From an uncultured virus (IMG/VR IMGVR_UViG_3300042338_000192) (lineage: Duplodnaviria; Heunggongvirae; Uroviricota; Caudoviricetes), in IMG/VR virus record IMGVR_UViG_3300042338_000192, positions 1-64,000 of that record: a DNA stretch of 64,000 bases. One strand, given 5' to 3'. Positions 1 through 59,827 of this stretch are shown piece by piece; positions within the stretch are counted from its first letter, which is position 1, and each line of letters starts with the position of its first letter. A model generated the notes under the pieces. The model worked only from the letters and a program-made list of their open reading frames with translations. It had not been told where the DNA came from and searched no databases. The position numbers and the translations under genes were made by a program.

Positions 1-1269
1 AAATTAAGATACGCCGTAGTGTGTTGCGCGAGGGGTTGGGGTAAATCATATATGGCTGCTGTGTGTGCAGTTACAGCTGTATTTGAATTACTCGAGCTAG
101 CAGCTAAGGTGCCTAATAAGACAGTGTACATCATTGCTCCTACTTATGATCAAGTAAAGGATATTTATTTTCCTTTAATAGCATACGACTTGGGAATGGA
201 AGACTATTCTATCAAAATGTCCCGTGACTTAGGACGATTTTGGTTCGCTAATAATGTTGAATTAAGATTATTATCATATGAATCAGTAGAACGTATGCGT
301 GGCAAGGGTTCTTATTTTGTCGTATGGGATGAGATATCATCATGTACCAAAGGTCTTGGTGCTGAAGACGCATGGATGTCTGTAATACAGCCTACTATTG
401 CCACTAGATGGTCTAACAAAAGAGCATTAAGTTATGGTGCTAGAAGTCCTGGACGTTCATTAGTTATTAGTACACCCAAAGGATATAATTTCTTTCATAC
501 ACTATCTACATATCATGAATCAGACTCTGATTGGGGATTTTATCAGTATGATTATTTACAATCGCCATTCCTAGATCAACAAGAAATAGAAAAGATTAAA
601 GATAAGATTGACCCAGTAACATGGGCATCAGAATACTTAGCACAATTTGCTGAATCAGGCAACAGTGTATTCTACTGTTTTGATCGTAAGAAACATGTTG
701 ATGCTACATTAGAAGACCTTATGGAAGGTGAAGATGTTCATATATGTATTGACTTTAACGTCATGCGTCAGTGTTCTAGTGTCTTCACACTTAGAGGGCA
801 TCAAATGCAATTTATTGATGAGTTCCAAGGGCATCCTGATACAGAATCACTGGCTATTGCTATTAAAGAAAAATATAAAGGCCATAAGATATATGCATAT
901 CCAGATCCTTCTGGTCGTGCTAGAAAGACTTCTGCTCCAGTAGGCCGTACTGACTTTAGTATATTAGAGACATATGGCATTATATGTAGAGCACACAGGG
1001 CTGCACCACCTATTATTGATAGTGTAGCTGCTGTAAACCGTAAACTATTAACAGCTTCAGGTAAAATAGACCTGTATGTACATCCTAGATGTTCCGGTAC
1101 TATTTTATCCTTAGAAAGAACAAAATGGACAGACCGCAACTTAGATATCGCGACAATTGATAAGTCCGAAAATATAGAGCATTTTTCTGACGGTATTAGA
1201 TATGCCACAGAATATCTCTATCCAATACAAACGGGCGGGAAACGGGTTTCTCGTGGGTTTAATTTCTAA
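1..1269 (+). CDS. terL: Terminase large subunit (5' truncated by window edge)
   Basis: Frame open from base 1. Walker A ARGWGKS, IIAPTYDQ, Walker B FVVWDE, ISTPKG motif, nuclease motifs IDFN, DPSG and EHFSDGIRY. Confidence 0.95.
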   Translation, partial: KLRYAVVCCARGWGKSYMAAVCAVTAVFELLELAAKVPNKTVYIIAPTYDQVKDIYFPLIAYDLGMEDYSIKMSRDLGRFWFANNVELRLLSYESVERMRGKGSYFVVWDEISSCTKGLGAEDAWMSVIQPTIATRWSNKRALSYGARSPGRSLVISTPKGYNFFHTLSTYHESDSDWGFYQYDYLQSPFLDQQEIEKIKDKIDPVTWASEYLAQFAESGNSVFYCFDRKKHVDATLEDLMEGEDVHICIDFNVMRQCSSVFTLRGHQMQFIDEFQGHPDTESLAIAIKEKYKGHKIYAYPDPSGRARKTSAPVGRTDFSILETYGIICRAHRAAPPIIDSVAAVNRKLLTASGKIDLYVHPRCSGTILSLERTKWTDRNLDIATIDKSENIEHFSDGIRYATEYLYPIQTGGKRVSRGFNF

Positions 1270-8632: not shown

Positions 8633-10057
8633 ATGGCTTTTCTTTCTCAAATAACAACAGGCACGCAAAATACTATTGGTGCCTATAATCCAATGTCCGC
8701 GCAAGCAATGCCCAGGGCATCGTATGTAATTGCTTCACATAATACCTCAAGTACCTTTTATGGCGCTATATTTTTAGACGCAGAATTTCGTAGAATTGGA
8801 AGACCTGGAAATCAGTTTGCCAATACGTATGCAAATGGTTTTACAAATGACATGGATCAAACAGACGGTTCATATGTTACTCCGAGTGGTCAGATGTTTA
8901 ACAACAGTCTAAGTCCGAATACGCAAACGTCTATGTCAAGCTCTGGCTACTCACTTCCGATGTGCGGTACTGCGTCAATGGGCGAATATGGACAAGGCGC
9001 ATTTATGGGCTCTGAACGCGGAATTATTATGAGCTCTAATATGCGGTTTCTATCTAGTACGGGTACAGCGCCCATTAGAGCTAACCGCGCGTTTGTAAAT
9101 AGCGATCATGCAAATAAAAAGTTAACCATGCAATTTTCAGGTGGATACTTAACAGTTTGCCCGATCCAAACTCCGATTTGTTATACAATAGCTTCTACAG
9201 ATCCTTTTCCACGTCCTAAGTTTAATGCGCAATCGCTCTTTAATACGTATGATTCAGGTAGCCAAACAACTAGCATGTATGGTTCTGCGTCGTATAATGC
9301 AGTGCGTAAGGAACTTATGATTGCAACAACTAGCAATACTGCCGCAGGCCGTGTGAATATTGCAATATGGAAGAATTTCGATTTTGATGCAGTTAGGGGA
9401 GATGTTGCAACACTATCCGCAGCGCCTACTGTTTTGTTGAATACAACTTTAGCCTCTTTTATTGACTCCTCCGAAGCTCGTTTTAATTCTAAATGGACAT
9501 TAGTTGATGATGGTAGTATATTTGTTTCAACAATGAATGAAGGAAGTAACAGTACTTATTTATGGAAGATTACAAGAGCTGCGCTTGACGCAAGTTTAAG
9601 CAATACTCAGGTAGGCACTCAGAGTACGACAACAGCGTATGGTCTTGCCAACGGCGAGTCTTATGGTCAACGTCAGATGCAAACTCGTTCAGGAAATATG
9701 ACTTGTAGTTGGGTGCCATATTATTATTACCAATGCGGTATTAGAAGCTGGGTAATTGATAAGCGTAATAGTTCGTGGACTTACGGGTATAGTGACAACA
9801 ACAGCACTTGTGGAACATACCCTATGAAATACAGAGATAATGGCTTTGTATTTGCGTTTACATCTAACTATTACGCAGGCAATTGGACTGGGATGTATAA
9901 TGCAGGAACTTGTTTTCCAAGTCTTACTGTAAATGCAGCGCCTATTGTGTATAATATGGCGTGGTATTATCCTTCTGCGCCAGGCCCTAATACAACTAAC
10001 TATCCCGGTATAAGTCATGTATGGGAATTTGACTTACAATCTCAATTACCTTATTAA
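8633..10057 (+). CDS. Putative receptor-binding/virion protein
   Basis: 474 aa rich in S/T/N/G/Y with higher GC, immediately after the fibre gene. Confidence 0.5.
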   Translation: MAFLSQITTGTQNTIGAYNPMSAQAMPRASYVIASHNTSSTFYGAIFLDAEFRRIGRPGNQFANTYANGFTNDMDQTDGSYVTPSGQMFNNSLSPNTQTSMSSSGYSLPMCGTASMGEYGQGAFMGSERGIIMSSNMRFLSSTGTAPIRANRAFVNSDHANKKLTMQFSGGYLTVCPIQTPICYTIASTDPFPRPKFNAQSLFNTYDSGSQTTSMYGSASYNAVRKELMIATTSNTAAGRVNIAIWKNFDFDAVRGDVATLSAAPTVLLNTTLASFIDSSEARFNSKWTLVDDGSIFVSTMNEGSNSTYLWKITRAALDASLSNTQVGTQSTTTAYGLANGESYGQRQMQTRSGNMTCSWVPYYYYQCGIRSWVIDKRNSSWTYGYSDNNSTCGTYPMKYRDNGFVFAFTSNYYAGNWTGMYNAGTCFPSLTVNAAPIVYNMAWYYPSAPGPNTTNYPGISHVWEFDLQSQLPY

Positions 10058-10066: not shown

Positions 10067-10321
10067 ATGGTAAATAAATTAAAATTTAATCTCCTTGGTG
10101 ATTTGGAAAATAACCCAAGATTGCTTGAAGTAGTAGATGGTGAATACGAAGCACCTACAGAAGGGCAGTTACCTCATAGGTTTAAATATGATGTTACAAC
10201 TGACTCTATTTTAGATGTTTACGGTGATATCTCTGACTTTGAAGTTAGACAAAAAGATCATGAAGCCGCAATTGCTTTGGCAACTGAGCTAGGTATGCCC
10301 TTACCACCTCCATTGGTATGA
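10067..10321 (+). CDS. Hypothetical protein (possible fibre chaperone)
   Basis: 84 aa, acidic, GAGG RBS, follows the fibre genes. Confidence 0.5.
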   Translation: MVNKLKFNLLGDLENNPRLLEVVDGEYEAPTEGQLPHRFKYDVTTDSILDVYGDISDFEVRQKDHEAAIALATELGMPLPPPLV

Positions 10322-10854
10322 GCCTACGGGAGCTAACCCACGATAAACATAGTGAGGCGGAAAATCACCGCTTCACTAAATTATTGTTAAGTGGAACAAT
10401 ACCAAAAGAAATATATGCAGACTATCTATATTCACAATTCAGATGCTATGCTATTCTAGAAGAAAGAGCCAGGTCTCTCGGATTACTTGATAACCTTGAA
10501 GCGATAGAACGTTCCATTAAAATATTTCAAGACTTTGATGAATTAGATTATGATGCACTCAATTACGATTCTGTTGAAAAGTACTCACAACATATACTAG
10601 CACTAGATAAGGAGCAACTCTTAGCTCATATTTATGTTAGACATTTCGGAGATATGTATGGTGGCCAAATGATTAAAAAGGTCATTCCAGGCTCCGGTAA
10701 AATGTATGAATTCGAAGATAGACAAGGATTAATCGATAAGATCAGACCTTTGCTATCAGATGACTTAGCTAATGAAGCTAATAAATGTTTTGATTTCGTA
10801 TTAAAATTATTTGACGAGATTTCAGATGAGCACGATATACAAAAAGTTCAATGA
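10318..10854 (+). CDS. ho1: Heme oxygenase (phage Ho1/HemO)
   Basis: SLRELTHDKHSEAE (proximal His), LAHIYVRHFGDMYGGQMI signature, EANKCF. Confidence 0.93.
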   Translation: MSLRELTHDKHSEAENHRFTKLLLSGTIPKEIYADYLYSQFRCYAILEERARSLGLLDNLEAIERSIKIFQDFDELDYDALNYDSVEKYSQHILALDKEQLLAHIYVRHFGDMYGGQMIKKVIPGSGKMYEFEDRQGLIDKIRPLLSDDLANEANKCFDFVLKLFDEISDEHDIQKVQ

Positions 10855-10893: not shown

Positions 10894-11685
10894 ATGAGTG
10901 AAATCTTTGAAAGATTAACAGTTCAGGCTGAACAATTCAAAGTATTACTAGATAACTATGCTGAAGATACGAATGAAGAGCATGATTTCGGTTGGGAAAA
11001 TAGAGTGTATAGTAACCATTATATACGTAGAGCTCATTTAGATATTATTGACCTTCGGGACACTAAGAAAATCTATATGATGCATCTCTGTATATTCCCA
11101 AAGATTACCTCTAATTCTCCTATCTTCGGTGTAGATATTGTGGCTGGCCCTAATAAAGTAACGGGCGCATTTCTTGATTACTCTCCTGTGTCTGAAGATA
11201 GTCATCCATTAACTAGTTGGTTTGCTTCAGAGACGAAGAAGTATAGTTGGAAGAGAGAGCGCGAGTTGCCTGAATGGGCACGCGCTATATTCAGTAAAGA
11301 TATGGTAGCTGCGAGTAATATAAACACTATAACCGAATTAGATGCATTTTTAAAGCTAGCACACGATTCACTTTCGTGTTATTTAACAAATGTAAATTAT
11401 TCTTCTAGCGAAGATTTATATATAGATCAACAAAATTTTTACTGTAAGATGCAAAAACAAAATCCTCATACGCCAAGAGTTTTAGAATCGTTAGGCTTTG
11501 AGAAAGAACTAGTAGTTAATTTTATTAATACAGGATTATTTCCGGAGATTGGTATGTCATTTTTAGATGATTTAAAAGATTCAGTAGAAGAGGTTGTTGA
11601 AGTACTAGTTCCTATTGTACCTCACAGCATTGTAGAAGATGTTGTCGACGTAACTGTTGACACAATTGTAGAGGTTGTATCATGA
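10894..11685 (+). CDS. pcyX: Ferredoxin-dependent bilin reductase, PcyX-type
   Basis: RRAH48LD50, M62xH64xC66IFP, PIFGVD81IVAG, RELPEWA..IFS, QKQNPHT; adjacent to the heme oxygenase. Confidence 0.85.
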   Translation: MSEIFERLTVQAEQFKVLLDNYAEDTNEEHDFGWENRVYSNHYIRRAHLDIIDLRDTKKIYMMHLCIFPKITSNSPIFGVDIVAGPNKVTGAFLDYSPVSEDSHPLTSWFASETKKYSWKRERELPEWARAIFSKDMVAASNINTITELDAFLKLAHDSLSCYLTNVNYSSSEDLYIDQQNFYCKMQKQNPHTPRVLESLGFEKELVVNFINTGLFPEIGMSFLDDLKDSVEEVVEVLVPIVPHSIVEDVVDVTVDTIVEVVS

Positions 11686-12495: not shown

Positions 12496-14094
12496 ATGAC
12501 ATACGGCCCTACTAAGACAGTTGCGGATCCTTGTCAAGCGTATGAGTATCTTAAACCTTCGTGGAATAAGGCACGTGCTGTATGCAATGGGGAACGTACT
12601 GTAAAAGAGTTGGATCAGTATATTGATCTAATTAGATTTAGCAATTTGCTGATACCCTTCTCTACAACAATGAGCCAAGCTCAATATGACTTTTATAAGT
12701 CAGAAGCTGAATTACCAGGCATTACTGCACAATTTGCTAAGATGCTTGTTGGGGGTTTATTAAGAAAAGCTCCTATATTGACATTACCAGATGAAGTTCC
12801 TGAAGAAGCTAAAGATTGGCTTATCAACAATATCGGACGTGATGACTCTACACTAGTGGCATTTCTTGATGAACTATTGTGGGAAGAGATCAATACATCC
12901 CGTGCATGGGTATTTGTAGACCACCCATCCGTTAATGATGTTGAGAACTTAGATAAAGAAACTAGAGATATGATTAAACCATATCCTATTTTGCAAAAAG
13001 CTGAAACAATTGTTAATTGGGCAACAACTGTAGATGTATTTGGTAAAACAGTTTTAAAATATGTAATTGTTAAAGGTTACTCAGAAGATTATACTACTAA
13101 TGAATTCCATGCTCTGAGAGTCCCTACGGTATGGGTGCATGAGTTAAACGAACAAGGTAATTACCAAATCCGCAAGTTCATGGGCACAACTAAAGATAAT
13201 GGTGATCAAACTCTTAAAATAGGGGGTATTGGTGAGAAAGCGCAGCAATTACTACCTTCAGGCCATTTTGAATTAATAGAAACATTTGACAATATACTTA
13301 ATAACGGGGAACCGCTAAAGCATATTCCTGCATGGCCTGTTAATGGTAATATAGAACCTATTATGCCATTATTAATGCCTATCGTAGATAAAGAGATTAG
13401 CCTATATAATAAAATTAGTAGACGAAATCATTTACTATACGGTGCAGCTACTTATACACCTGTTATTATGTCAGATATGCCTGATGAACAATTTGATGAA
13501 ATTGTAGACGCTGGATTAGGGTCTTGGATAAGATTACGCCAAGATGATAAAGCAGATGTCTTAAAAACACCCACAGACGCATTACAAGATATGCAAAAAG
13601 CTATTGAAGCATCTATTGATGAAATGGCTAAACTTGGCATTAGAATGCTTACAACTGAAAATGAACAATCAGGTATTGCATTAGAAATTCGTAATGCTGC
13701 TCAAACGGCACAATTAAGTGTGTTGAGTACAAAAATCTCTAGTACATTAAAGCAAGTAATAGGCTTAATGGTTAACTGGAGATATGGCCTGCAAATTGAT
13801 TCATGTGATATTGTGTTTAATTTATCCGCAGATTTTGATCCAGTGCCTTTAGGTGCTGATTGGTTGAATCTTGTTACTCAATGGTATCAATCAGGTTTAT
13901 TACCAAGAAGCGTGTGGTTACAGATGTTAAAAGCAAATGATATTCTTGATTCTGAATATGATGATGAAGCCGCATTACAAGAAGTAAACGCTGATGAATT
14001 AATCATTCCTGCTGCAACAAAATATAATGATCAATATGCTATGCAGTCAGAAGCGGCTGCTGCAGGTAGTAAACCAAAACCTATGAAGGAATAA
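12496..14094 (+). CDS. Portal protein
   Basis: 532 aa directly upstream of the MuF gene. Pattern (Y..Y...A..P, L.RK.P, I.NW, ESG.A..IR, acidic C-terminus) resembles SPP1-like/DUF4055 portals. Confidence 0.85.
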   Translation: MTYGPTKTVADPCQAYEYLKPSWNKARAVCNGERTVKELDQYIDLIRFSNLLIPFSTTMSQAQYDFYKSEAELPGITAQFAKMLVGGLLRKAPILTLPDEVPEEAKDWLINNIGRDDSTLVAFLDELLWEEINTSRAWVFVDHPSVNDVENLDKETRDMIKPYPILQKAETIVNWATTVDVFGKTVLKYVIVKGYSEDYTTNEFHALRVPTVWVHELNEQGNYQIRKFMGTTKDNGDQTLKIGGIGEKAQQLLPSGHFELIETFDNILNNGEPLKHIPAWPVNGNIEPIMPLLMPIVDKEISLYNKISRRNHLLYGAATYTPVIMSDMPDEQFDEIVDAGLGSWIRLRQDDKADVLKTPTDALQDMQKAIEASIDEMAKLGIRMLTTENEQSGIALEIRNAAQTAQLSVLSTKISSTLKQVIGLMVNWRYGLQIDSCDIVFNLSADFDPVPLGADWLNLVTQWYQSGLLPRSVWLQMLKANDILDSEYDDEAALQEVNADELIIPAATKYNDQYAMQSEAAAAGSKPKPMKE

Positions 14095-14113: not shown

Positions 14114-17100
14114 ATGACCATTAATAGTAATACACAAATATACGACAAAACACTAGATCGCGCAGCAATGATCCGTCTGTATGAGAGAAGAGTCTCTGGT
14201 AAAGTTGATTTAGTAATTGATGGTCATGTTGTTAGACTAGATAAATTAATTAAAGATGCTGAACTATCAGGCAGGGGTTTTGAAAGATTCAGAGAAGCAG
14301 TTGATCAAGAGTTAAGAAAGACTTATAAGTCAATTAATAATTCTGTTCAAAAAGATCTTTCATCACTTGTCTCAGATCAACTCTCATATGCTTATCAAAA
14401 AGTTGAAGTGGCAATGGGTAAAATATGGCGTACTGAAAGACCTAAAAATAGAATCTCTGAAGAAATTGTACTTAAAAATCCATTAAGCGAAAATGGTACA
14501 ATGGAACAGGGATGGTCAGGTATTGCCAAGAATGAAAAAATTAGATTAGAAGCAGTTATACGTAAGGGTATAGCTGACGGAAAAAGCGTAGATGAAATAG
14601 CTCTACAAGTACGTGCAGGAAATGTACATAATATAACTCGCATGCAGTCGAAAGGTCTGGTAATAACAGCCATTACAGCTGTATCCTCTCAGGCTGATCA
14701 TGCTATTTATAAAGCAAATGAAAAAGCGTTACAAGGATGGCAATATGTTGCTGTCCTTGACGCACGAACAACCCCAGTATGTGCCCATAGAGATGGTGAA
14801 ATTTATCCGATTAGCGATACAACACATCTCCCACCAGCACATTGGCATTGTAGATCTACAACAGTTCCTGTATTTAAATCATGGAGCGATATAGCAGATT
14901 TAGAAAGCGTAGCACAAGTAAGACGTAGAAATATTGAGAACTTAACTGATGCTCAAAAGGCTTTTTATGACGGTAATACACCACTTAGAGAATCATACAA
15001 TGATTGGCTAAAGCGTCAGCCACAAGATGTACAATTAAGGCATTTAGGTGATTATAAAAAAGTTAGTATGTTCCAAAGCGGGCAGCTTACCTTAGATCAG
15101 TTTACTAATCCCGAAGGTAATTCTATTGGGATTAAAGAATTAAGACGGATGACCGATCCCACATATACACTGCCAAATGATACAAAAAAGTTTGCTAATG
15201 CTAAAGCTAAACTTGATGCTATGCAACTTCCAATCATGACACCTGATGATTTAATTGGCAACACTAAGCTTATACAAACACTTAAAGATTATTATTTACT
15301 GCAATCAGGTGAATTAGACGGTACATTATCACTCACTAATTATAGGGGTGGTCTTATTCATACTAAGAAATCTGCCAAGGCAAGAGTACTTAATAGTCTT
15401 CCAACAGAAGATCAACTCATTTTTAATCCTGTCACAGGTCGATACGAAGATACAAGACTATACCAACCCAATCCGTCCGTACTAAATAATAACTTAAGAT
15501 TGACAGAACAAAGTAATGTTCTAAAGCCTAAAGATAAGGAATTTATTAAGGAATTTAATGAATTACTTAGTGAGAAAATGGGATCTAATGAAAGGGCAGT
15601 CGTGGTAGATAACCTGCGTATATTATTTACTAGATTTAGAAATAATGGTGAACAGTGGAATAATTTTAAAGCTGTAGTACAAGGTCAAATTAAATTTGAT
15701 GTAATGAATGTTTCTGATGCTATTGAAACTCAGATACGTAGTGATATCAACGTATTGAAGAAACTCAAACAAGATAATTATATTGATCCAGTATTAGGTC
15801 CAACTCAATTACAAGACTTACATGATAATTTCATTGATAATATTCGTGCTAAGAATAACTGGGAAGACACTATATCACCTAAAATAGCTAGAGAGTTACG
15901 TAATACATTTGATTACAAAATTCCTTTAGTATTAAAAAGAATGCCTAACGGTAAAGAACGTTTAACTGAATCTGCATTACAGCAATTTTATCTAAAGTTT
16001 GCTCACAGGCTAAGTATGGCAGATATGCCTGATAGAGACCAGTTTGCTATTGCATTAGGAAGAGATTTATATAATCTTGCTAATATGAACGGCACTAGAC
16101 GTAAATGGTATGAAACAGGTATGAAGCTACTTGAAGCTAAAAATGTTAATAATTTCTTTGAAGTTGAAACATATGGTGTTCAAAAAAGAAGAATGAAAAG
16201 TAGACTTAGTGGTTCTTTATTTGGTCCCTATTATGACACCTTATCATATAATATACGTGTTACTGATCCGCGTGTACAAAAATACTCACAGCTCACACGG
16301 AAAGTGGATGTCGGCCTTCGTGTCGGTGTAACAACGGATAAGAATAAGTTATTATTTCGCGAGGGTTATAAAACGTATTTTATTGATAATGGTGTCCTCG
16401 GTTTAGAAGATACTAGAATACCTATTACATCAACAAATAGTTTTTCAGATTTTCCTGTAGAATTTGTTGACAAGAATATGGCAGATGCACTTAACTGGGC
16501 ATCCAAATCCAAGTATAAAATTGATAATGACTTTTACGACTTTACTCAGAAATTACTATACTTTGAAGATGATCGTGGTAATGCTAAAAAGTATAATGAT
16601 TTAAACGAGTATAAACATTATATTTCTTCTCGTGGTGATGCATATGAGCGATTTAAATCTATGGATTGGCTTAGAAATAATGGTTACGCTTTCAGTAATC
16701 ATGCTTTTGTCGATCATCGGGCTAGGATCTATGATCGTGGCCTTATTAGTCCGCAATCGGGAGAGTCATTTAGACCTTTCTTAAATACTGAAGTAGAAAA
16801 GGTTCTTGGCGAAGATGGATATAGAAACTTCAGAGATCAGATAGGTGCCTTTATGGGGGGTCTAAATGATGTATTTGAAGGTAGATATAATTCATTGTCA
16901 TTTACTGGACGCCAAAAGATTGCTGATAAATTGTGGCCAGATATGGTAGACCTTGGTAATAAAATGCTAAGAGCCAGACCTGCAGATTTACGTGCCATTC
17001 TGGAATCAGATATGGTGCAATTAATTGAAGGTGAGGAACTTGGTAAGTTCATGAGATTTGCTATGGAAGCTGCTAAGATAGATAATCATCTTAAAGCCGG

Positions 17101-19441
17101 CGGCTCTATGAATGCATACAAAACAGCTTTAGCTTTAGAACAAGATGCTTCATCATCAGGTGCTCAGATTATTGCGTTAACTACGAAGAACAAACAGTTA
17201 GCCTCGTTATCTAATGTCATACCTACAAATCAGAAACGCAGGCTATATGATGAAATTGCTGCTGCAACTTTTAATGATCCTCGGTTTAAAGTTTTAAATG
17301 AGAGATTAGGTTTAAATGAGAAAGATTTACGTAAAGCTGCAAAAGCTCAAAATATGGTTACGTTTTATGGTGCTGGAGAAAGAACTGGAATTCTTAATGT
17401 TGAAGGTAAACTTGCAAAAGTATTGGAAAAGAAACCTGCAAAACCTGTTGAAACAAAAGTAACAGAAGGTTTATTATCCGAGCGTCAAGATTCTGCAGGA
17501 TTGTTAAGAGTATTAGGTGTTGATAATAAAACAGATCCTAATTATGTAGGCACAGTAGATGAGATTATTAAATCGCAAGGTGAGTTAATTTCAAAGGCTA
17601 TGAAAGGTCAGTTGTCTCCTGCAGAATTAAAAAATACGTTTAAATGGCTACATACTTCTGATATTGAATTAACAGATGAAAGAAAAGAGCGTGCTACATA
17701 TAAAACATTTGATCATAAGACTGGTGAAAAATTTTCTAAAGAAAAGATAGCTGAAAATAAAGCTAAATTTGAACAGCGCTCAAAAGGCGATACTAAGAAA
17801 TATATTGCTATGCAAGTTGTTGAAGAACTCGGTGAATTTTTAGATGAGCATTTAAAATCTTTAAATGTCCCTTCCGATTCAAGAGCCTTTAAATTATTAG
17901 AAGCTCAAAAACGTATTTTAAAGTCAAACAGGTTTGGTGAAGACACTATCATTAAAGATGAAGCGAGTGTTTATAATTTAAAGACAAATAAACAAGCTGC
18001 TGAAATGGCTTTAGAAGATGCAGGATTTACACCTGCTACTGCAAACACAGAAAAGACTATAGCAGATCTTAGTTCAGCATTACAAGAAGAATTGATTAAT
18101 GTAACTAAAAAGCCTGAAACATTTGCACCTACATTAGTAGTTAGAGCTAGTGATAGAGACAAAGTATTAAATGAAATATCGGCACGTGCAGCAAGATATG
18201 AAAAGTTTGATCCTGAAACAACTGCAGAACTTAAGCAATTAAGAGAAAATGTAAAAGACATCTTTAATAAAGGACTAGACCCTGGTGATGAGATAATGGA
18301 ACAATTATACTTCCTTGATCCAGCTACTAAAGACCTAGTAGAAAAGATGACACGTTCATATGATATGGTTGTCACTCCAAAAGACTTCCAAGCTATTGCT
18401 AAATTAATGTCTGAACATTTAGGTGAGCAGGTTCCTATTCTTAAAGATTTTACTAAATTCTTTGGTAGGCTAGCTGAAGATTATTTAACTAATGCTAAGC
18501 CTTCACAAGCTGCATTAGATTGGAAATCTATAGGCGCTACTAGTATATTAGGTACCCGTAAAAAGGGTTATGTATTACCTGATAGAGTTAGTGAAATATT
18601 AGGATTAAGGCCTGGAGAAGCTTTGTCTGAAAAGTTTTTAAAGAGATTTGATGGTTGGAAACCTGACGGAACCTTGGCTGATCTTATTTATGGTGTAAAA
18701 GGCCCAAAAGATCGTAGAACTGGATTTAAAGTATTTAAAGTAGAGCCTATAGAAAAATTAAATATCTCTAAAGGTTTTGAAATATTTTATGCTAATAAGC
18801 TGCCCAAGTCTTGGACTAATGTCCCATGGGTTAATTTTGATGGAAAAGTTATTGAGCAAAACTTTACCCAGTCATTTGAAGAAAGATTAGTCTATAAAGA
18901 TAAAGATGGTAATTGGGTTAATAATTTAGTTCAAGTGCAACAGAAAACAGAAGCCACTTGGTGGGAACAAGTAGTAAATGCTGAAGGAAAGATAAATGAC
19001 ATTGCAGACGCGACTAAAGCACGAACAGCATATGCCGTTAACGGGAATCACTCAAACGATGCTACGTTGGTCAAGAATTTCCATTTATGGGGACGAGACA
19101 ATAAGATTGCCACAAGCACCATTCACGATGCGTTTTTCGCCAATGCAGCCGATATGCTGGAGGCCCGGAAGGGTATAAGAAAGCTATATGCTAACGTACT
19201 AGATAAGAACCCTGTCAAGGTTACTTTAGATGAAATGTTAGCTAGAGGTTTTCCAAAAGAATTATATGATCAATATTTAGAAGAAGCTATTGATAAAGGA
19301 TTAATTCCAGTTGCTGGTAAATCAGTTGTCGGTGGTAAAACATTAACAGAAGCAGACATCTTAACAAAGAAAGATGTATTAAGCGATATTCCTGATCCTA
19401 CTAAATTTGAGGATGATTGGGGATTTTACGGTATAGGCTAA
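14114..19441 (+). CDS. MuF (SPP1 gp7-like) head morphogenesis domain fused to a T7-type single-subunit RNA polymerase; putative virion RNAP
   Basis: N-terminal MuF motif AVLDARTTPVCAHRDG...PPAHWHCRS. C-terminal RNAP motifs DHRARIY, motif A QD1011ASSSGAQ, motif B RKAAK1077AQNMVTFYG, NGNHSNDA and motif C TIHD1672AF. Confidence 0.9.
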   Translation: MTINSNTQIYDKTLDRAAMIRLYERRVSGKVDLVIDGHVVRLDKLIKDAELSGRGFERFREAVDQELRKTYKSINNSVQKDLSSLVSDQLSYAYQKVEVAMGKIWRTERPKNRISEEIVLKNPLSENGTMEQGWSGIAKNEKIRLEAVIRKGIADGKSVDEIALQVRAGNVHNITRMQSKGLVITAITAVSSQADHAIYKANEKALQGWQYVAVLDARTTPVCAHRDGEIYPISDTTHLPPAHWHCRSTTVPVFKSWSDIADLESVAQVRRRNIENLTDAQKAFYDGNTPLRESYNDWLKRQPQDVQLRHLGDYKKVSMFQSGQLTLDQFTNPEGNSIGIKELRRMTDPTYTLPNDTKKFANAKAKLDAMQLPIMTPDDLIGNTKLIQTLKDYYLLQSGELDGTLSLTNYRGGLIHTKKSAKARVLNSLPTEDQLIFNPVTGRYEDTRLYQPNPSVLNNNLRLTEQSNVLKPKDKEFIKEFNELLSEKMGSNERAVVVDNLRILFTRFRNNGEQWNNFKAVVQGQIKFDVMNVSDAIETQIRSDINVLKKLKQDNYIDPVLGPTQLQDLHDNFIDNIRAKNNWEDTISPKIARELRNTFDYKIPLVLKRMPNGKERLTESALQQFYLKFAHRLSMADMPDRDQFAIALGRDLYNLANMNGTRRKWYETGMKLLEAKNVNNFFEVETYGVQKRRMKSRLSGSLFGPYYDTLSYNIRVTDPRVQKYSQLTRKVDVGLRVGVTTDKNKLLFREGYKTYFIDNGVLGLEDTRIPITSTNSFSDFPVEFVDKNMADALNWASKSKYKIDNDFYDFTQKLLYFEDDRGNAKKYNDLNEYKHYISSRGDAYERFKSMDWLRNNGYAFSNHAFVDHRARIYDRGLISPQSGESFRPFLNTEVEKVLGEDGYRNFRDQIGAFMGGLNDVFEGRYNSLSFTGRQKIADKLWPDMVDLGNKMLRARPADLRAILESDMVQLIEGEELGKFMRFAMEAAKIDNHLKAGGSMNAYKTALALEQDASSSGAQIIALTTKNKQLASLSNVIPTNQKRRLYDEIAAATFNDPRFKVLNERLGLNEKDLRKAAKAQNMVTFYGAGERTGILNVEGKLAKVLEKKPAKPVETKVTEGLLSERQDSAGLLRVLGVDNKTDPNYVGTVDEIIKSQGELISKAMKGQLSPAELKNTFKWLHTSDIELTDERKERATYKTFDHKTGEKFSKEKIAENKAKFEQRSKGDTKKYIAMQVVEELGEFLDEHLKSLNVPSDSRAFKLLEAQKRILKSNRFGEDTIIKDEASVYNLKTNKQAAEMALEDAGFTPATANTEKTIADLSSALQEELINVTKKPETFAPTLVVRASDRDKVLNEISARAARYEKFDPETTAELKQLRENVKDIFNKGLDPGDEIMEQLYFLDPATKDLVEKMTRSYDMVVTPKDFQAIAKLMSEHLGEQVPILKDFTKFFGRLAEDYLTNAKPSQAALDWKSIGATSILGTRKKGYVLPDRVSEILGLRPGEALSEKFLKRFDGWKPDGTLADLIYGVKGPKDRRTGFKVFKVEPIEKLNISKGFEIFYANKLPKSWTNVPWVNFDGKVIEQNFTQSFEERLVYKDKDGNWVNNLVQVQQKTEATWWEQVVNAEGKINDIADATKARTAYAVNGNHSNDATLVKNFHLWGRDNKIATSTIHDAFFANAADMLEARKGIRKLYANVLDKNPVKVTLDEMLARGFPKELYDQYLEEAIDKGLIPVAGKSVVGGKTLTEADILTKKDVLSDIPDPTKFEDDWGFYGIG

Positions 19442-19444: not shown

Positions 19445-19579
19445 ATGAACGCAGAAATTAAAAGATGTACATGCCAACATCCTAATCAGGATAAACTTCA
19501 TGGTAATGGAATGAGAGTGATGAATCCAGATCAGAAGAAAGGATTTACATGTACGGTATGCGGGGCTAAACATAAATGA
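19445..19579 (+). CDS. Small Cys-rich (possible Zn-binding) protein, 44 aa (not in ORF track)
   Basis: MNAEIKRCTCQHPNQDKLHGNGMRVMNPDQKKGFTCTVCGAKHK; CxC...CxxC. Confidence 0.6.
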   Translation: MNAEIKRCTCQHPNQDKLHGNGMRVMNPDQKKGFTCTVCGAKHK

Positions 19580-19604: not shown

Positions 19605-19621
19605 CCCGTTAAATTAACCCT
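19605..19621 (+). promoter_or_regulatory. Repeated motif class A (putative phage RNAP promoter)
   Basis: CCCGTTAAATTAACCCT; identical at 19719 and 59783, one mismatch at 52095. All copies are intergenic. Confidence 0.7.
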
Positions 19622-19718
19622 AAAGCGGTCCCCCTTTATTTAATCCCTTTAGTTAATCAGTCTATTATCTATCCCTTAGAAATATACTAATAGATAATTA
19701 TCTTAAGGGATTATAGAA

Positions 19719-19735
19719 CCCGTTAAATTAACCCT
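19719..19735 (+). promoter_or_regulatory. Repeated motif class A (putative phage RNAP promoter)
   Basis: CCCGTTAAATTAACCCT upstream of the scaffold/capsid operon. Confidence 0.7.
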
Positions 19736-19813
19736 AAATACTAAAAACAAATATCCTATAGGGTGAATTGTATTCACTTTATAACACTGAGTTGTACTCA
19801 AAGGAAACATAAA

Positions 19814-20452
19814 ATGACCGAAAATGTCGAAGAAAAAGAAACTGATAATATTACTCCGGATACTACTGCTACCAATTCTCCTGTGGATGATATGGACACG
19901 AAGATCCAAGAAGCTCTTAAACCAATCAAAGAAAAACTCGATAAAGCGTACAGCGAAAGAGACAATGCGTTAAAGAAAGCTGCTGAGTATGAACAAAAAG
20001 AGAAAGAAGCTGAAATAAAAAGACTTCAAGAAGAAGGAAAACATAAAGAAGTTTATGAACTTCAGTTAGCGGAAGCCAATGCTAAATTGGAAACGATAAC
20101 AAAACGTAACATAGAACTCGCTAGGGATTTAGAAGTAAAATCTGTTCTTAGTGGATATACGTTTAGAAGTGATAAAGCTGCGGATATGGCATATATGGAT
20201 GTGGCATCGCAACTTGTACAAAATGAAAATGGAGTATGGGTGCATAAATCAGGAACTGATCTAAGAACCTTTATAAAACAATTTTCTGAAGACGATAACA
20301 ATTCTTTCTTATTCAAACCAAAAGTTTCGACAGGGGCCGGTCAGACAAGTTCTAGCAGTACTTCTCAAGATACTTCGAATAAATCTTTATTCCAGTTATC
20401 ACAAGATGAAGTGCTTAAACGTGCTGCTGAAGGATCACTTCGCAGGAAATAA
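19814..20452 (+). CDS. Capsid scaffolding protein
   Basis: Start refined to ATG 19814 (AAGGA RBS). Highly charged coiled coil with FLFK..STGAG C-terminal motif; precedes the major capsid gene. Confidence 0.8.
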   Translation: MTENVEEKETDNITPDTTATNSPVDDMDTKIQEALKPIKEKLDKAYSERDNALKKAAEYEQKEKEAEIKRLQEEGKHKEVYELQLAEANAKLETITKRNIELARDLEVKSVLSGYTFRSDKAADMAYMDVASQLVQNENGVWVHKSGTDLRTFIKQFSEDDNNSFLFKPKVSTGAGQTSSSSTSQDTSNKSLFQLSQDEVLKRAAEGSLRRK

Positions 20453-20472: not shown

Positions 20473-21714
20473 ATGGGCGTTACAACAAGTACCTTGCCTA
20501 CAGGTATGCAGGCTGGCTTAACAAATAACTATGTATTACAAGAAGCAATTGGTGCTTACAGCGATGAAGCTTATACCAATGCAAGAAAATTATCTGGCAC
20601 AGGTATTACTTCTTCTAATCCACAAATTGATACTAGCACAGAAACCTTTATTGGTCAAATGCGTTGGATGAAACCGTTAAACCCAACTATTAACGTTGCG
20701 TCATTAACTGAATCTGCAGACGGCGTCAAAACCAATTACGACACTGACTACAGCACATATATTAAAACTGTGCGTACACACGGTGCCGAAAAAGTTAACA
20801 TGCAACAAATTGTTACACAACAAGACGGCTTAGCTAAAATTGGTCGTGACTTCGGTGAAACCCGCGCTCAAGACGAACACAATGCTATTCTTTCTGTATT
20901 GAAAGGTGTTGCTGTAGCTGAAGCATTAAACGGTGCTGCTACAGGTTCAGGTTCAACCGGTCTTGGCGGTCAAACATTCTCTAACGATCCTACAGATAAG
21001 AAATATGGTTTCTACGTAGATCTTGGTTCTGAGAAAATCGTTACTGCTAATGGTGTGGCTCCTGGTGCGGTTACTAACTATGCATATCAAGGTGCTTCAC
21101 GTGCTGAAGGTTTCTTAAATGCATTTGGTATGGCATTTAAAGATTATGAACCAGAATGGGCGTACTTAATTGTATCTCCTGAAACTATGGCTTCATTTCG
21201 TTCAGCTAACTTTGTCGATGAAACAACTATTGTTGATGGTAACATTAACTTTAACACAATCTTCAATGGTAAATTCCGTCTAATCACTACACGTGCTGCT
21301 CAGTCGCTTTCTGCTGCTGAATTAACAATGTTACGTACTGGTGCTGGCGTTGGTGCTGCAACTACTTTTGCTGCTAATAAGAAAACTTCATTCATTGTAT
21401 TGCCAGGTGCGATTGCAATGGAACAGTTGACGGTTCCTGATTCAGTTGAAGTTTACCGTGACGCTAACAAATACAAAGGTGGTGGTACAACTTCTATTTG
21501 GAATCGTTGGGGTTATGTATTATCTCCTGCTGGTTACGATTGGAATGGTGCTAAAACTGAATTCCCATCTGATGCAAATTACATGGGTGTTGTTGAAAGC
21601 GGTACTTCTAAAGCATTGACTGCAACTGGTACTATTGCTAACGCACGTGGTACATGGACACGTAAAACAGCTTCTGCATTATCATTAGGTATCTTACCTG
21701 TATTCCATTCTTAA
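20473..21714 (+). CDS. Major capsid protein
   Basis: 413 aa after the scaffold with strongly biased codons. TFIGQMRWMKPL, QDEHNAILSVLKG and YRDANKYKGGG motifs. Confidence 0.85.
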   Translation: MGVTTSTLPTGMQAGLTNNYVLQEAIGAYSDEAYTNARKLSGTGITSSNPQIDTSTETFIGQMRWMKPLNPTINVASLTESADGVKTNYDTDYSTYIKTVRTHGAEKVNMQQIVTQQDGLAKIGRDFGETRAQDEHNAILSVLKGVAVAEALNGAATGSGSTGLGGQTFSNDPTDKKYGFYVDLGSEKIVTANGVAPGAVTNYAYQGASRAEGFLNAFGMAFKDYEPEWAYLIVSPETMASFRSANFVDETTIVDGNINFNTIFNGKFRLITTRAAQSLSAAELTMLRTGAGVGAATTFAANKKTSFIVLPGAIAMEQLTVPDSVEVYRDANKYKGGGTTSIWNRWGYVLSPAGYDWNGAKTEFPSDANYMGVVESGTSKALTATGTIANARGTWTRKTASALSLGILPVFHS

Positions 21715-51134: not shown

Positions 51135-51149
51135 AAAGGGAAAAAACAC

Positions 51150-51818: not shown

Positions 51819-51826
51819 AATTTGAG

Positions 51827-51855
51827 ATGCCCTGACTACGGTTGGGGCATTTATT
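51827..51855 (+). terminator. Intrinsic terminator ending the late region
   Basis: ATGCCCTGAC-TACG-GTTGGGGCAT-TTATT; cUACGg tetraloop. Confidence 0.7.
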
Positions 51856-51860
51856 CGCAC

Positions 51861-52094: not shown

Positions 52095-52137
52095 CCCGTT
52101 GAATTAACCCTTCAGACGTCCCCCCTCAATTAACCCT
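52095..52137 (+). promoter_or_regulatory. Motif class A copy plus a degenerate second copy
   Basis: CCCGTTGAATTAACCCT (52095-52111) and CCCCCTCAATTAACCCT (52121-52137). Confidence 0.65.
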
Positions 52138-52171: not shown

Positions 52172-52195
52172 CGGAAATAATGGTATCTTATATGA
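52172..52195 (+). promoter_or_regulatory. Repeated motif class B (putative early promoter)
   Basis: CGGAAATAATGGTATCTTATATGA; 21/24 identical to 52710-52733; upstream of the first early gene. Confidence 0.65.
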
Positions 52196-52674: not shown

Positions 52675-52678
52675 CACA

Positions 52679-52704: not shown

Positions 52705-52709
52705 AAACG

Positions 52710-52733
52710 CGGAAAAAGAGGTATCTTATATGA
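52710..52733 (+). promoter_or_regulatory. Repeated motif class B (putative early promoter)
   Basis: CGGAAAAAGAGGTATCTTATATGA directly after a terminator and before the next gene. Confidence 0.65.
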
Positions 52734-52782
52734 AGTACAATAAGGTACCTCAACTAACTTAATTAAAATCAAAGGTAATAAA

Positions 52783-54209: not shown

Positions 54210-54290
54210 CCCTCCCACATCCCTAATACATTCCCTTAATTGGGGGTGTATTAGGGATGTGGGAGGGTTAACCCTTATTTTTTTCTTTCT
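54210..54290 (+). terminator. Long hairpin followed by T tract (terminator, processing site or origin)
   Basis: 21-bp perfect inverted repeat CCCTCCCACATCCCTAATACA/TGTATTAGGGATGTGGGAGGG, extended by 5 pairs around a TTAATT loop. Confidence 0.6.
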
Positions 54291-54469: not shown

Positions 54470-56689
54470 ATGAGAATACAACTATTGAAGTCATTAAAAA
54501 GAAGGATGCAATTAGAAATAGCTCCTCAAAGTCCGCTAAAATTTCTAAAAGAAATTGACTTAGAAAGCGTATTAGATGTAATAATATCTAACGTATACTT
54601 ATACACTCGTCCAAAGAGAGGTGCTGTAAACAAACAAATATTAATGGTAGAAGTCATTAGCATTATTGGGCATTCAGTAAGACGAGGTTTAAAGAAAGAT
54701 TCATCTGTTGCGGCTAAGACTGGTGCATTCATACTATACTCATTTGAAGAGCTTGGAATGCTTAGAGCAGTACTAGGTTCTGCTGGTAATGGTCATGCAA
54801 CATATATTGTAGAAGTCTTAGATGATGCGACAATACAATTACTATGGGAAAGTGTAAGCAGAGAAGGTGCCAAGGGTAAATTACCTTCAGTAACACCATA
54901 TGAATCTTATACAGAATTCAAACACCCTACTGGACAAGTATTAGTCAAGACGGGTAATAAAGATGTTCCAACAAAATTAACACCTGCAACACATCCTATA
55001 GTATTTGATTCAGTAAATAAGAGCTTAAATACGGGTTGGCAAATAAACAAAGAAGTTTATAATGTTTCTAAATGGGCATTGAATAACCATACTGATGCAT
55101 TTAGTGATATATGGGAGCAGCAAAATCCTCAAGCTAAGACTACTAAATTAAGGGAAACAAAAGCTATTCTATCTATAGCAGATAAGTTCATGGATACTGT
55201 ATTTTACCATATGTATTACCTTGATTTCCGTGGAAGGAAATATCCAACAACGGCATATCTCCATGAACAATCTAGTGATATTGCTAAAGGTCTTTTAATG
55301 CGTCAAGATAAGAAAGTAATTGGTGAAGAGGGTTTCTTTTGGCTATGTGTATCTATCGCCAGTAACTGGGCAGGTTCATCAGGACGTGAAGATGGTGCAA
55401 AGACGGATAAGATCAATCTCAAAGACCGATATCAGTGGGTATTAGACAATCAAGAGATTTTATTATCATATGCAGAAAGTCCAAAAGTAAATCAAGGATG
55501 GATGTCAGGAGATAAGCCATGGCAATTCTTAAGTGCATGTATTGAATTAAGAAATGCTTTAAAATTGGGACCAAGATATTTAGAGTATGAGTCACATGTT
55601 GAATGTTTTATTGACGGATCAACGAACGGCTCACAACATTTATCTGCATTAACAAGAGATGAAATAACAGCTCCATATGTTAATTTAATTCCATTAGAAC
55701 TTCCAGGTGATTTATATGCATATGTTGCCGAACATGTATGGAATAAAATATCTAATGACATAGCAAGAATGCCAGCGGATTTAATCTTTCAATGTGAAGA
55801 TTTTATAGATGGCTTAATTAAATTAAAGAAAAAGATTACTGCATCCGAACCTAAGTCTGAAATTAGGAATCAACTAGTAGCTCAAATTAAAGCCTATAAA
55901 CAACAATGGGCTGATATTGGCTCTGTTGCAGCACCTGTATTTTGGAATCGTATAAAGGATTTGAAACAAAGAAGGAAGATAGTTAAAAGAAACACTATGA
56001 CTCTTCCTTATGGAGGTAGCAGCTATGGATTGGGAGAGCAACAAATCCTTGATGCAAAAAAGCATGGAATAGACTTGCTACTTCATATGGAGCATAAATG
56101 GGGAGCTTGGCTGGGCAGATTAGTATTTGAAGATTGTAAAGCTTCATTAGAGAAGCCAATGAGGCTGTTAAATATATTTGAGAATGCCGGAAGAAACTGT
56201 GAGAAAATTGAAGAATTTTTATCATGGAATGTTCCAATAGTAAACTTTCCTGTGGTACAAAATTATACAGAAGGTAAAGTTAAAAAGATTTATGTACAGT
56301 ATGGGCCACCAGTTGGGTCACGTAAATCTACAGGTTATTATGAAAACACTTTTCAATTAGCAATATGTTTTATTGAAGATGTGGTTCCTAGTAAAGGTAA
56401 GCAGTCTCAAGGAGCAGCACCTAACGTTATTCATAGTTTAGATGCAGCACACTTAGCACTTACTACACACCGTTGTGATTTTACAATTACAACAATTCAT
56501 GACAGCTATGGTTGTTTATTTGCTGACATGCCAAATCTCTTTAGAATAGTTCGCGAGACATTTGTAGAACTTTATAAAGATAATCCATTGTTTCCAATAA
56601 TGGATGATATTGACGGAGATCTTACTTATCTTGAGATGGGTGATCTTGATATTAATTTAATTCTAGAAAGCGAATACGCTTTCGCATAG
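54470..56689 (+). CDS. T7-type single-subunit DNA-directed RNA polymerase (short N-terminus)
   Basis: LDFRGRKYP, DKPWQFL, motif A ID382GSTNGSQHL, DLY, motif B RKIVK506RNTMTLPYG, APNVIHSLDAAHL, motif C TIHD678SY, C-terminal YAFA. Confidence 0.97.
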   Translation: MRIQLLKSLKRRMQLEIAPQSPLKFLKEIDLESVLDVIISNVYLYTRPKRGAVNKQILMVEVISIIGHSVRRGLKKDSSVAAKTGAFILYSFEELGMLRAVLGSAGNGHATYIVEVLDDATIQLLWESVSREGAKGKLPSVTPYESYTEFKHPTGQVLVKTGNKDVPTKLTPATHPIVFDSVNKSLNTGWQINKEVYNVSKWALNNHTDAFSDIWEQQNPQAKTTKLRETKAILSIADKFMDTVFYHMYYLDFRGRKYPTTAYLHEQSSDIAKGLLMRQDKKVIGEEGFFWLCVSIASNWAGSSGREDGAKTDKINLKDRYQWVLDNQEILLSYAESPKVNQGWMSGDKPWQFLSACIELRNALKLGPRYLEYESHVECFIDGSTNGSQHLSALTRDEITAPYVNLIPLELPGDLYAYVAEHVWNKISNDIARMPADLIFQCEDFIDGLIKLKKKITASEPKSEIRNQLVAQIKAYKQQWADIGSVAAPVFWNRIKDLKQRRKIVKRNTMTLPYGGSSYGLGEQQILDAKKHGIDLLLHMEHKWGAWLGRLVFEDCKASLEKPMRLLNIFENAGRNCEKIEEFLSWNVPIVNFPVVQNYTEGKVKKIYVQYGPPVGSRKSTGYYENTFQLAICFIEDVVPSKGKQSQGAAPNVIHSLDAAHLALTTHRCDFTITTIHDSYGCLFADMPNLFRIVRETFVELYKDNPLFPIMDDIDGDLTYLEMGDLDINLILESEYAFA

Positions 56690-59782: not shown

Positions 59783-59799
59783 CCCGTTAAATTAACCCT
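59783..59799 (+). promoter_or_regulatory. Repeated motif class A (putative phage RNAP promoter)
   Basis: CCCGTTAAATTAACCCT ending 29 nt before the SSB start; overlaps the hairpin GGGTCTCTA/TAGAGACCC. Confidence 0.7.
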
Positions 59800-59827
59800 A
59801 ATTCAGAAATCAAAAGAGAGAACAGCA

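Follow-up and report, generated by a model that had tools for sequence, protein, structure and literature searches.

The window analysed here is 64,000 nucleotides long and comes from an IMG/VR virus record of 66,324 bases (IMGVR_UViG_3300042338_000192, an uncultured virus of the Caudoviricetes) with a completeness rating of 95%. Its plus strand carries, at 14114..19441, a gene for a protein of 1775 amino acids that belongs to two families at once, the MuF minor head proteins and the T7-type single-subunit RNA polymerases (RNAPs), and that is a member of neither the family of the phage N4 virion RNAP (vRNAP), gp50, nor that of the Thermus phage P23-45 enzyme. The phage thus probably carries its own polymerase into the host; the delivery of an RNAP by a MuF head protein has not been described for long-tailed phages. 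Virion RNAPs are known only from a handful of phage groups, which differ in how they package them. Conservation among divergent relatives shows that purifying selection acts on both halves of the protein throughout a large family of phages of the siphovirus type.

The polymerase half

As judged from its predicted structure, the C-terminal half is a complete T7-type single-subunit RNAP, for which activity is predicted. The module extends from about residue 565 to residue 1775 (15806..19438, plus strand), with an N-terminal domain at about 565-900 that is followed by thumb, palm and fingers up to the C-terminus. The Pfam family RNA_pol (PF00940) scores 39 bits against a gathering cut-off of 22, its best stretch being residues 1607-1716, and phrog_414 ('RNA polymerase') matches residues 864-1096 at 2e-22. 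Sequence searches against the PDB gave either nothing (0 matches in single-sequence phmmer searches with either half) or weak matches to T7 RNAP (E 0.046-0.066 with the family profile, aligned at the DxRxR and HSxD..IHDxF elements), so that a comparison of folds was needed. A match of the family profile to PH1932 (E 6e-4) was discarded as unrelated.

An AlphaFold model of residues 576-1775 was built on the family alignment, with a predicted local distance difference test score (pLDDT) of 79.2 and a predicted template modelling score (pTM) of 0.74. Its top Foldseek match is T7 RNAP (E 5.6e-14). The T7 RNAP elongation complex (8dh5_E) superposes on the model with Z 31.3 and a root-mean-square deviation of 3.4 A over 521 residues at 17% identity, and the superposition pairs model positions 151..1200 with T7 261..883, reaching the T7 C-terminus. 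Human and yeast mitochondrial RNAPs give Z values of 24-30, the N4 mini-vRNAP 21.2 and 15.9, and full N4 gp50 13.4-13.8, with identities in the structural alignments of merely 16-18%. The start of the module near residue 565 was placed with a second model, of residues 1-900, in which residues 565-900 correspond to T7 34..454 (Z 9.7) and to residues 2..269 of N4 RNAPII subunit A (Z 9.1), both middling values.

The initial annotation of this gene, read from the sequence by a model, had described intact catalytic motifs A, B and C, and each of the residues that it named was found in place. In a conservation set of 25 family members with 20-68% identity, the motif A aspartate D1011 (17144..17146, plus strand) is invariant (25/25). 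In motif B, R1073-x3-K1077-x7-Y1085-G1086 (17330..17371, plus strand), K1077 and Y1085 are invariant in the 25 and G1086 is conserved in at least 90%. The aspartate of motif C, H1671-D1672 (19124..19129, plus strand), which is profile-aligned to the 'IHDSF' of T7, is likewise invariant; for R1073 and H1671, conservation reaches at least 90% in a closer set of 23 members. R871 and D1649 are further residues that do not vary across the 25 members. The specificity-loop region of the fusion is placed at about residues 1569-1609. The protein ends in FYGIG, versus FAFA in T7 RNAP. Domain score, right-hand fold and catalytic residues all place this half among the T7-type RNAPs.

The MuF half and its position next to the portal gene

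The N-terminal part, residues 1-349 (14114..15160, plus strand), is a MuF or SPP1 gp7-like head-morphogenesis domain. It matches phrog_241 at 5e-62, and Phage_Mu_F (PF04233) covers residues 146-250 with 53.3 bits against a gathering cut-off of 29.6. Eleven residues of the MuF core are invariant across the 25 members (L215, D216, T219, C223, P240, P241, H243, C246, R247, S248 and P252), and the MuF motif that had been read at nucleotides 14735-14870 corresponds to residues 208-253, covering this core. With both Pfam families above their cut-offs and the T7 fold at Z 31.3, the initial proposal of Phage_Mu_F plus RNA_pol on one chain is borne out by profiles and structure.

The position of the gene agrees with its domain score in assigning the protein to the MuF/SPP1 gp7 family. 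The fusion gene starts with ATG, has no internal stop and begins 19 nucleotides (nt) downstream of the end of the portal gene (12496..14094, plus strand; phrog_145 2.8e-56, DUF4055), whose product is the presumed docking partner of the MuF domain. The scaffold gene (19763..20452, plus strand; phrog_206) and the major head protein gene (20473..21714, plus strand; phrog_247) lie downstream. The uninterrupted 1775-residue open reading frame (ORF) that was initially noted at the MuF position between portal and scaffold is therefore a single frame with PHROG-matched neighbours. The order portal-fusion-scaffold-major capsid was found in the loci of 26 relatives; L108 has no detectable portal relative in its 5.9 kb of upstream sequence. 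By analogy with SPP1 gp7, the MuF half would dock on the portal, and the capsid would enclose a small number of copies.

Between the two halves, residues 350-564 (215 residues; 15161..15805, plus strand) form a mostly helical region that is kept in the family and has no assigned fold. In the model of residues 1-900, also built on the family alignment (pLDDT 84.9, pTM 0.51), this region has a pLDDT mostly of 70-95. A fold search with residues 1-270 returned helical-bundle look-alikes (designed bundles, the MxA stalk and ABC transporters) at Z 7-9.6, which were not interpreted, and residues 270-565 were barely covered by the fold comparison. Prediction of a complex between the portal (532 amino acids, 23-row alignment) and MuF residues 1-360 (25 rows) scored 0.00 in both runs, which were made without controls and have no bearing on binding either way.

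A widespread family

Residues 850-1775 gave 418 matches at E <= 1e-3 in a collection of 5.8 billion proteins. Both PF00940 and PF04233 are present in 113 of the 120 best of these 418, the other seven being shorter or partial. Clustering at 50% left 144 representatives, 69 of them at E <= 1e-30, and the full-length ones measure 1264-2073 amino acids with 20-42% identity. Among the 25 divergent members, MuF is detected in all 25 and RNA_pol in 21 (E <= 0.001). IMG/VR contains 587 stretches that code for relatives of the MuF pattern. Of the 80 loci that were retained, 44 match as far as the RNAP C-terminus, the majority of the rest are truncated at contig ends, and about 13 are plain MuF proteins.

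A megablast search with the fusion gene gave no match. Of 50,697 deposited phage records, only three hold relatives with more than 70% query coverage: EBPR siphovirus 1 (58% identity) and the roseophages DSS3_VP1 and DSS3_PM1 of the Naomviridae (31%). The DSS3 phages encode the protein as one coding sequence (CDS) of 1463 amino acids, annotated as 'head morphogenesis' or 'minor head protein-like protein' (YP_010105321). The same fusion is thus found in phage genomes, as well as in many metagenomic relatives, and its recurrence in independent assemblies and in cultured phages, together with the single CDS of DSS3_VP1, rules out an assembly chimera, which the initial annotation had named as a possible flaw.

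In some relatives the gene appears split (gp47 and gp49 of EBPR siphovirus 1, with the HNH gene gp48 between them, and the loci L034, L038 and L043). These splits trace back to group I introns and not to separate MuF and RNAP genes. Introns that score above the Rfam gathering threshold close the first ORF in L034 (two, 9251-9489 and 11105-11368), L038 (7933-8203) and L043 (3571-3770). A full-length match below threshold (40.5 bits, E 1.7e-8) lies beside the HNH gene of EBPR siphovirus 1 (L001 9179-9405). All of them interrupt the RNAP part of the gene, at or near the region encoding motif B. No group I intron was found in the fusion gene of the window.

The pair of Pfam families is already present in precomputed database entries, under the name 'SPP1 gp7 family putative phage head morphogenesis protein'. 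Since databases name the family after head morphogenesis, the polymerase is invisible in annotation, and hundreds of metagenome members are known as 'head morphogenesis protein' only. No description of a MuF-RNAP fusion was found in literature searches, whose scope did not extend to subscription journals and supplements.

Features that bear on delivery with the virion

The fusion gene is located in the late head module, and the two nearest sites of the candidate promoter motif 1, described below, follow it and precede the scaffold gene. According to the accessible parts of the literature on the model protein, SPP1 gp7 enters the procapsid via the portal in few copies (PMC6316719, PMC5576092), and virions that lack it are just about 25% infectious (PMC6316719, PMC5576092, PMC5512222). 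The same route, with delivery at infection, is presumed in these sources for toxins fused to MuF.

The cysteine content of the protein is unusual. Its only cysteines are the invariant MuF pair, C223 and C246, and the 1529 residues that follow C246 contain none, versus about 9.3 expected at the background frequency of the phage (P ~9e-5). Twenty of 24 divergent relatives also lack cysteine after the MuF motif, and the other four have two or three. The cytoplasmic enzymes of the phage contain nine each (9/739 in the second RNAP, 9/630 in DNA polymerase and 9/416 in terminase), and free RNAPs from other records (P0264, P0230 and P0254) have 8-11. None is found in the N4-type vRNAP P0176 (0/3748), in P0179 (0/1183) or in the tape measure protein of the window (0/5895).

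Moreover, Pfam and PHROG scans gave no head protease among the genes from portal to capsid, and there is accordingly no sign that the two halves are cut apart.

An insertion shared with N4-type virion RNAPs

Just after motif B, residues 1107-1340 (17432..18133, plus strand) form an insertion of 234 residues in the fingers that is absent from most relatives, whose typical length is about 1540 amino acids. It is recognized as an insertion because the family consensus passes directly from '...KLAKVL.K' to 'TLVVKASDRD'. The pLDDT of the model is low in this region. The first ~200 residues are 41% identical to residues 932-1148 of P0176, a full-length N4-type vRNAP of 3748 amino acids (phrog_2206, 1486 bits), and 36% identical to part of P0177. 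P0179 and P0177, the latter with an additional GGDEF domain, both correspond to the N-terminal part of phrog_2206. A tblastn search of the 234 residues against the 50,697 phage records gave no match. As no cultured phage of the collection has it, this is a mobile module common to two kinds of large polymerase protein.

A second RNA polymerase and two classes of conserved motif

The second RNAP that had been noted at 54470 was confirmed. This free-standing T7-like enzyme, RNAP2 (54470..56689, plus strand), has 739 amino acids, matches PF00940 at 3.7e-65 (221 bits) and phrog_414 at 3e-112, and ends in YAFA. With the CDS annotated as 'RNA polymerase' in DSS3_VP1 it shares 35% identity. A free RNAP accompanies the fusion in the window, in DSS3_VP1 and in the records G001 (92% complete) and G002 (86% complete), and thus co-occurs with it in every near-complete relative. 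The records that show the fusion only are 68% and 73% complete, and EBPR siphovirus 1 is a partial sequence.

Two classes of promoter had also been proposed. The first, motif 1, is the 19-mer CCCGTTAAATTAACCCTAA, with four plus-strand sites in the window, one of which has three mismatches, versus 0 expected. Two exact copies lie between the fusion and scaffold genes (19605..19623 and 19719..19737, plus strand), the latter 26 nt upstream of the scaffold gene, and a site directly past the fusion stop is also found in the relatives L029, L032, L034 and L040. A third exact copy (59783..59801, plus strand) is located at the head of the replication gene block, so that motif 1 precedes both the scaffold and capsid genes and the replication block; in 13 of the 19 loci taken around RNAP2 relatives, the corresponding position holds a site that is exact or has one mismatch. 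The variant with three mismatches (52095..52113, plus strand) lies 87 nt upstream of the first motif 2 site and is kept as a variant in relatives. We take the motif 1 core, AATTAACCCT, to resemble the T3 promoter.

Motif 2, GGTATCTTATATGA, is present twice in the window (52182 and 52720), and both copies stand upstream of small ORFs at distances of 37-49 nt. The first, CGGAAA-N5-GGTATCTTATATGA (52172..52195, plus strand), is 37 nt from its ORF, and the second (52709..52752, plus strand) is followed by the conserved block AGTACAATAAGGTACCTCA and forms a hairpin. Exact copies are present in 17 of the 19 RNAP2 loci, amounting to 39 sites, every one of them on the plus strand and upstream of RNAP2, and the match is exact even in L023, whose RNAP2 is only 58% identical; the two loci without the motif have only about 1.2 kb of upstream sequence each. 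All 25 distinct contexts read GCGGAAA-N5-GGTATCTTATATGA, and 18 of them also have AGTACAATAAGGTACC downstream. The proposal of two classes therefore stands as regards the enrichment of motif 1 and the exact conservation of motif 2 in relatives; it is weakened by there being only two window copies of motif 2.

The roseophage DSS3_VP1 is collinear with the window and has a many-copy class, ATAGGGTGCGTTAAAGA, as well as a class of 2-3 copies ending in GGCATCTATAATGA. The latter class agrees with motif 2 in 10 of 14 positions and stands at the start of the small-ORF block upstream of its RNAP. In this genome (locus L109), a terminator-like hairpin (10137-10173) comes right after the tape measure gene and is followed by two 43-nt elements ending in GGCATCTATAATGA (10180-10222 and 10627-10669).

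In the window, a perfect 21-nt inverted repeat, CCCTCCCACATCCCTAATACA ... TGTATTAGGGATGTGGGAGGG, followed by a T-run (54210..54286, plus strand), reads as terminator-like. It is placed between the early small-ORF block and a hydrophobic ORF of about 42 amino acids that precedes RNAP2, and a consensus scan flags only its inner part, 54263-54276. The repeat is a candidate terminator or attenuator that may control the expression of RNAP2.

RNA data came from contigs of three metatranscriptome runs, all from one sample of one study labelled freshwater metagenome, in which carry-over of DNA is possible. About 38% of the sampled words of 51000-60500 were present, with contigs over RNAP2 and neighbouring ORFs. 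Three contigs end at 59804, 3 nt past motif 1, and contig depth, which cannot rank genes, is about 12-15 before this point and about 260-330 after it (~20-fold). A loose contig end indicates strain divergence at 59803, and the break is a weak hint of a transcription start at most. No contig covers 52906-54509, an absence that carries no weight. Other loose ends, at 52221-52225, 52704-52709 and 52759-52763, flank both motif 2 blocks; from their clustering on both sides, co-occurring strains appear to share these blocks exactly and to differ in the flanks, in agreement with the IMG/VR loci.

A proposed transcription programme and its alternatives

We consider it reasonably probable that the fusion is a MuF-tagged, capsid-loaded and ejected T7-type RNAP that starts early transcription, with RNAP2 then acting on motif 1 promoters. 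Portal docking, packaging, ejection, activity and the assignment of promoters are the inferred parts of this reading. The support for a vRNAP cascade is circumstantial and comes from the position in the late module, the MuF literature, the absence of cysteine, the module shared with N4-type enzymes, the partner RNAP and the two motif classes.

In this scheme, the fusion gene would be expressed late along with the head genes, and its MuF domain would bind the portal during procapsid assembly, as SPP1 gp7 does on gp6, bringing few copies of the 200-kDa protein into the capsid. At infection, the cysteine-free polymerase part would thread unfolded through the tail, with the DNA or just ahead of it. 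Once refolded, it would transcribe the first genes independently of host RNAP and of new protein synthesis, its likeliest promoters being the motif 2 sites (GCGGAAA-N5-GGTATCTTATATGA) with which the small-ORF block (52.1-54.2 kb) opens. The early transcripts would reach or enable the RNAP2 gene (54470-56689), and RNAP2 would read the motif 1 promoters, CCCGTTAAATTAACCCTAA, of the replication block (59783) and of the scaffold and capsid genes (19605 and 19719).

A broader form of the proposal would extend it to a large clade of long-tailed phages that is widespread in the environment, including the cultured roseophages of the Naomviridae, whose DNA contains deoxyuridine (dU). Such phages would be fully independent of host RNAP by means of two T7-type enzymes, the MuF-tagged one being loaded into the capsid, ejected unfolded together with the DNA and reading its own early class, GCGGAAA-N5-GG[TC]ATCT...ATGA. 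The module shared with N4-type proteins would then mark genetic exchange between two kinds of injected polymerases. The chances that this broader form holds seem evenly balanced.

Several observations weigh against virion delivery or against the proposed cascade. In structure, the polymerase resembles T7 and mitochondrial RNAPs more closely than N4 vRNAP (Z 31 versus 21), and phrog_2206, the N4 vRNAP family, is absent from the 15 PHROG matches of the fusion (E <= 0.001), which places the protein outside the gp50 family. The term 'N4-like' consequently describes a proposed strategy and not a lineage. The lack of cysteine is not exclusive to ejected proteins, as the major capsid protein (0/413) and the ORF at 2215-4164 (0/649) have none either. 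The 200-kDa protein would have to pass through a siphovirus tail already filled by a tape measure of 5895 amino acids. No virion proteomics was found in the literature for any family member, and 'RNA polymerase' has 0 occurrences in the main text of the Naomviridae paper (Rihtman 2021, PMC8323127). As for the motifs, motif 2 has only two window copies, and when two mismatches are allowed its four sites compare with 0.88 expected, a count reached by 1 of 100 shuffles. A strong terminator-like hairpin separates the motif 2 block from RNAP2. Hairpin promoters in the style of N4 were rejected as the form of motif 2, because just one of its two sites folds significantly as single-stranded DNA (-8.1 kcal/mol, z -3.76, for copy 2; z -0.27 for the other).

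A last point of this kind, the perfect TATAAT in the DSS3_VP1 counterpart of motif 2, which could be a host promoter, introduces an alternative that we regard as unlikely. T7 itself uses the host RNAP for its early genes, and its genome entry is driven by transcription. Under a comparable scheme, host RNAP would read the early block, RNAP2 included, from motif 2 as a sigma-70-type promoter, and the packaged MuF-RNAP would have another job at entry, such as transcription-driven pulling of the DNA, priming of replication or synthesis of one specific RNA. The TTATAT within motif 2 of the window would also fit. However, the exact conservation of motif 2 extends over at least 24 nt, and over about 44 nt in 18 of its 25 contexts, a length that greatly exceeds two hexamers, and no conserved -35 element is seen. 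Sigma-70-like sites are not enriched in the region (39 between 50.9 and 64 kb, versus 52 +/- 6.6 expected), and it would be difficult to account for the packaging of a promoter-specific RNAP if the phage had no early promoters for it.

Since neither enzyme is tied to either motif by the present data, the assignment of promoters could also be reversed or shared, with the ejected MuF-RNAP reading sites of the motif 1 type, including the variant at 52095, and RNAP2 reading motif 2 or both. The conservation of that variant at the head of the early block, 87 nt from the first motif 2 site, would agree with such an exchange. We judge it quite improbable, because motif 1 precedes late (scaffold and capsid) as well as replication genes and because RNAP2, with its 221 bits for PF00940 and its YAFA C-terminus, is the more canonical T7-type enzyme; the presumed resemblance of the motif 1 core to the T3 promoter also speaks against it.

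Finally, it is very improbable that the protein is not packaged as a polymerase, being a late non-virion RNAP co-translated with MuF, an enzyme cleaved off before packaging or a structural relic: although the literature holds no virion data on the family and some MuF proteins are, in the accessible text of one source, fused to proteases or portals for assembly reasons (PMC7302621), no head protease is detected in the module, the loss of cysteine is specific to the fused polymerase and not the free one, a polymerase made late would have no obvious task with RNAP2 promoters already in front of the late genes, and catalytic residues invariant down to 20% identity argue against a relic.

Other features of the window

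All the large genes of the window are on the plus strand. An ORF of 44 amino acids (19445-19579, plus strand) with a CxC...CxxC, zinc-ribbon-like pattern begins 4 nt past the fusion stop. It shares the 321-nt gap after the fusion gene with the two exact copies of motif 1; in relatives, the spacing between fusion and scaffold is just ~70-130 nt.

The tape measure protein is encoded by a single ORF of 5895 amino acids (24907-42594, plus strand) that takes up 27% of the 66-kb genome. It contains TMP_3 (residues 132-320) and SLT lytic transglycosylase (about 3052-3148) domains, and 66-nt (22-amino-acid) tandem repeats with a long array at 35904-38600. Its length exceeds that of the tape measure of Thermus phage P23-45, for which 5002 residues are given in the accessible text (PMC10770324). 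A tape measure of this length implies an extremely long tail.

Two large tail-fibre-like proteins are encoded at opposite ends of the structural region. The first (5336-8611, plus strand; 1091 amino acids) has three CBM_5_12 carbohydrate-binding modules and matches phrog_9851 with 766 bits, and the second (43896-49130, plus strand; 1744 amino acids) has a C-terminal fibre domain. Between the tail-fibre-like genes and the endolysin gene lies a gene for a ferredoxin-dependent bilin reductase (10894-11685, plus strand; PF05996 1.9e-22, phrog_7278), an auxiliary gene usually associated with cyanophages. Pfam and PHROG scans of the replication-side ORFs revealed no deaminase or HD hydrolase, and the ORF at 59771-60319, in the position of the DSS3_VP1 deaminase, has no Pfam match; no claim is therefore made on base modification in this phage.

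Comparison with known systems

Like T7 RNAP, whose fold it matches from about residue 34 (at middling Z in the N-terminal domain) to residue 883, the polymerase half has motifs A, B and C, the DxRxR palm element and the HSxD element. Unlike T7 RNAP and RNAP2, it is fused, lacks cysteine and contains the 234-residue insertion.

A close precedent in strategy is N4, whose vRNAP, in the accessible text of two sources, is packaged and injected and transcribes the early genes before a second phage RNAP takes over (PMC4496689, PMC5512222). N4 gp50 (Schitoviridae) is likewise a single-subunit RNAP of the T7 superfamily encoded among late genes, and an N4-type enzyme, P0176, shares with the fusion the lack of cysteine and the module of about 200 residues. 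However, gp50 is a protein of about 3500 amino acids with its own N- and C-terminal domains for injection and encapsidation, has no MuF domain and belongs to podoviruses, whereas the fusion has 1775 amino acids, a MuF carrier and siphovirus-type tail genes around it. As far as the accessible text of Iyer et al. 2017 goes, N4-like vRNAP modules are restricted to N4-like phages, and none of its many MuF fusions is to an RNAP (PMC5512222).

MuF polymorphic toxins and polyvalent proteins have the same architecture, with an N-terminal MuF domain encoded after the portal and a C-terminal enzymatic cargo for which, in the parts of the sources available, passage into the capsid and the host has been proposed (PMC5576092, PMC6316719, PMC5512222). 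The cargo of the fusion differs, being a polymerase of 1200 amino acids for the phage's own expression and not a toxin or a host-modifying enzyme. There is also no immunity gene, the next gene being the scaffold gene or the 44-residue Cys-rich ORF, and the relatives have lytic-type genomes; no integrase or repressor was found among the PHROG matches of the genes scanned. The protein is thus not a MuF toxin, and the word 'polymerase' has 0 occurrences in the main text of the MuF toxin survey.

The siphovirus P23-45 provides another case of an RNAP fused to a virion protein, here one that exits the particle during infection, and accompanied by a second RNAP. Its tape-measure-fused gp96 transcribes, according to the accessible text, the pre-early genes, including that of the non-virion RNAP gp64 (PMC10770324). 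The word 'MuF' has 0 occurrences in this paper. The P23-45 enzymes are two-barrel polymerases, homologues of cellular RNAPs, and have the tape measure as their carrier, in contrast with the right-hand, T7-type polymerases and the proposed MuF carrier of the window.

If the proposal is correct, it would explain how gene expression could start without host RNAP in phages whose cultured members have dU-substituted DNA, and DSS3_VP1, which is cultured on the harmless marine bacterium Ruegeria pomeroyi DSS-3, lets the idea be tested directly. For biotechnology, the family would be a source of single-subunit RNAPs that are highly divergent and free of cysteine, and of long exact candidate promoters. 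With a T7-type RNAP as its load, the generic 'cargo hook' that MuF provides in siphoviruses would prove able to deliver phage transcription machinery and not toxins alone. It would also add a further independent route of polymerase delivery to those represented by N4 gp50, crAss-type gp66, the phiKZ-type multisubunit vRNAP and the P23-45 tape-measure fusion.

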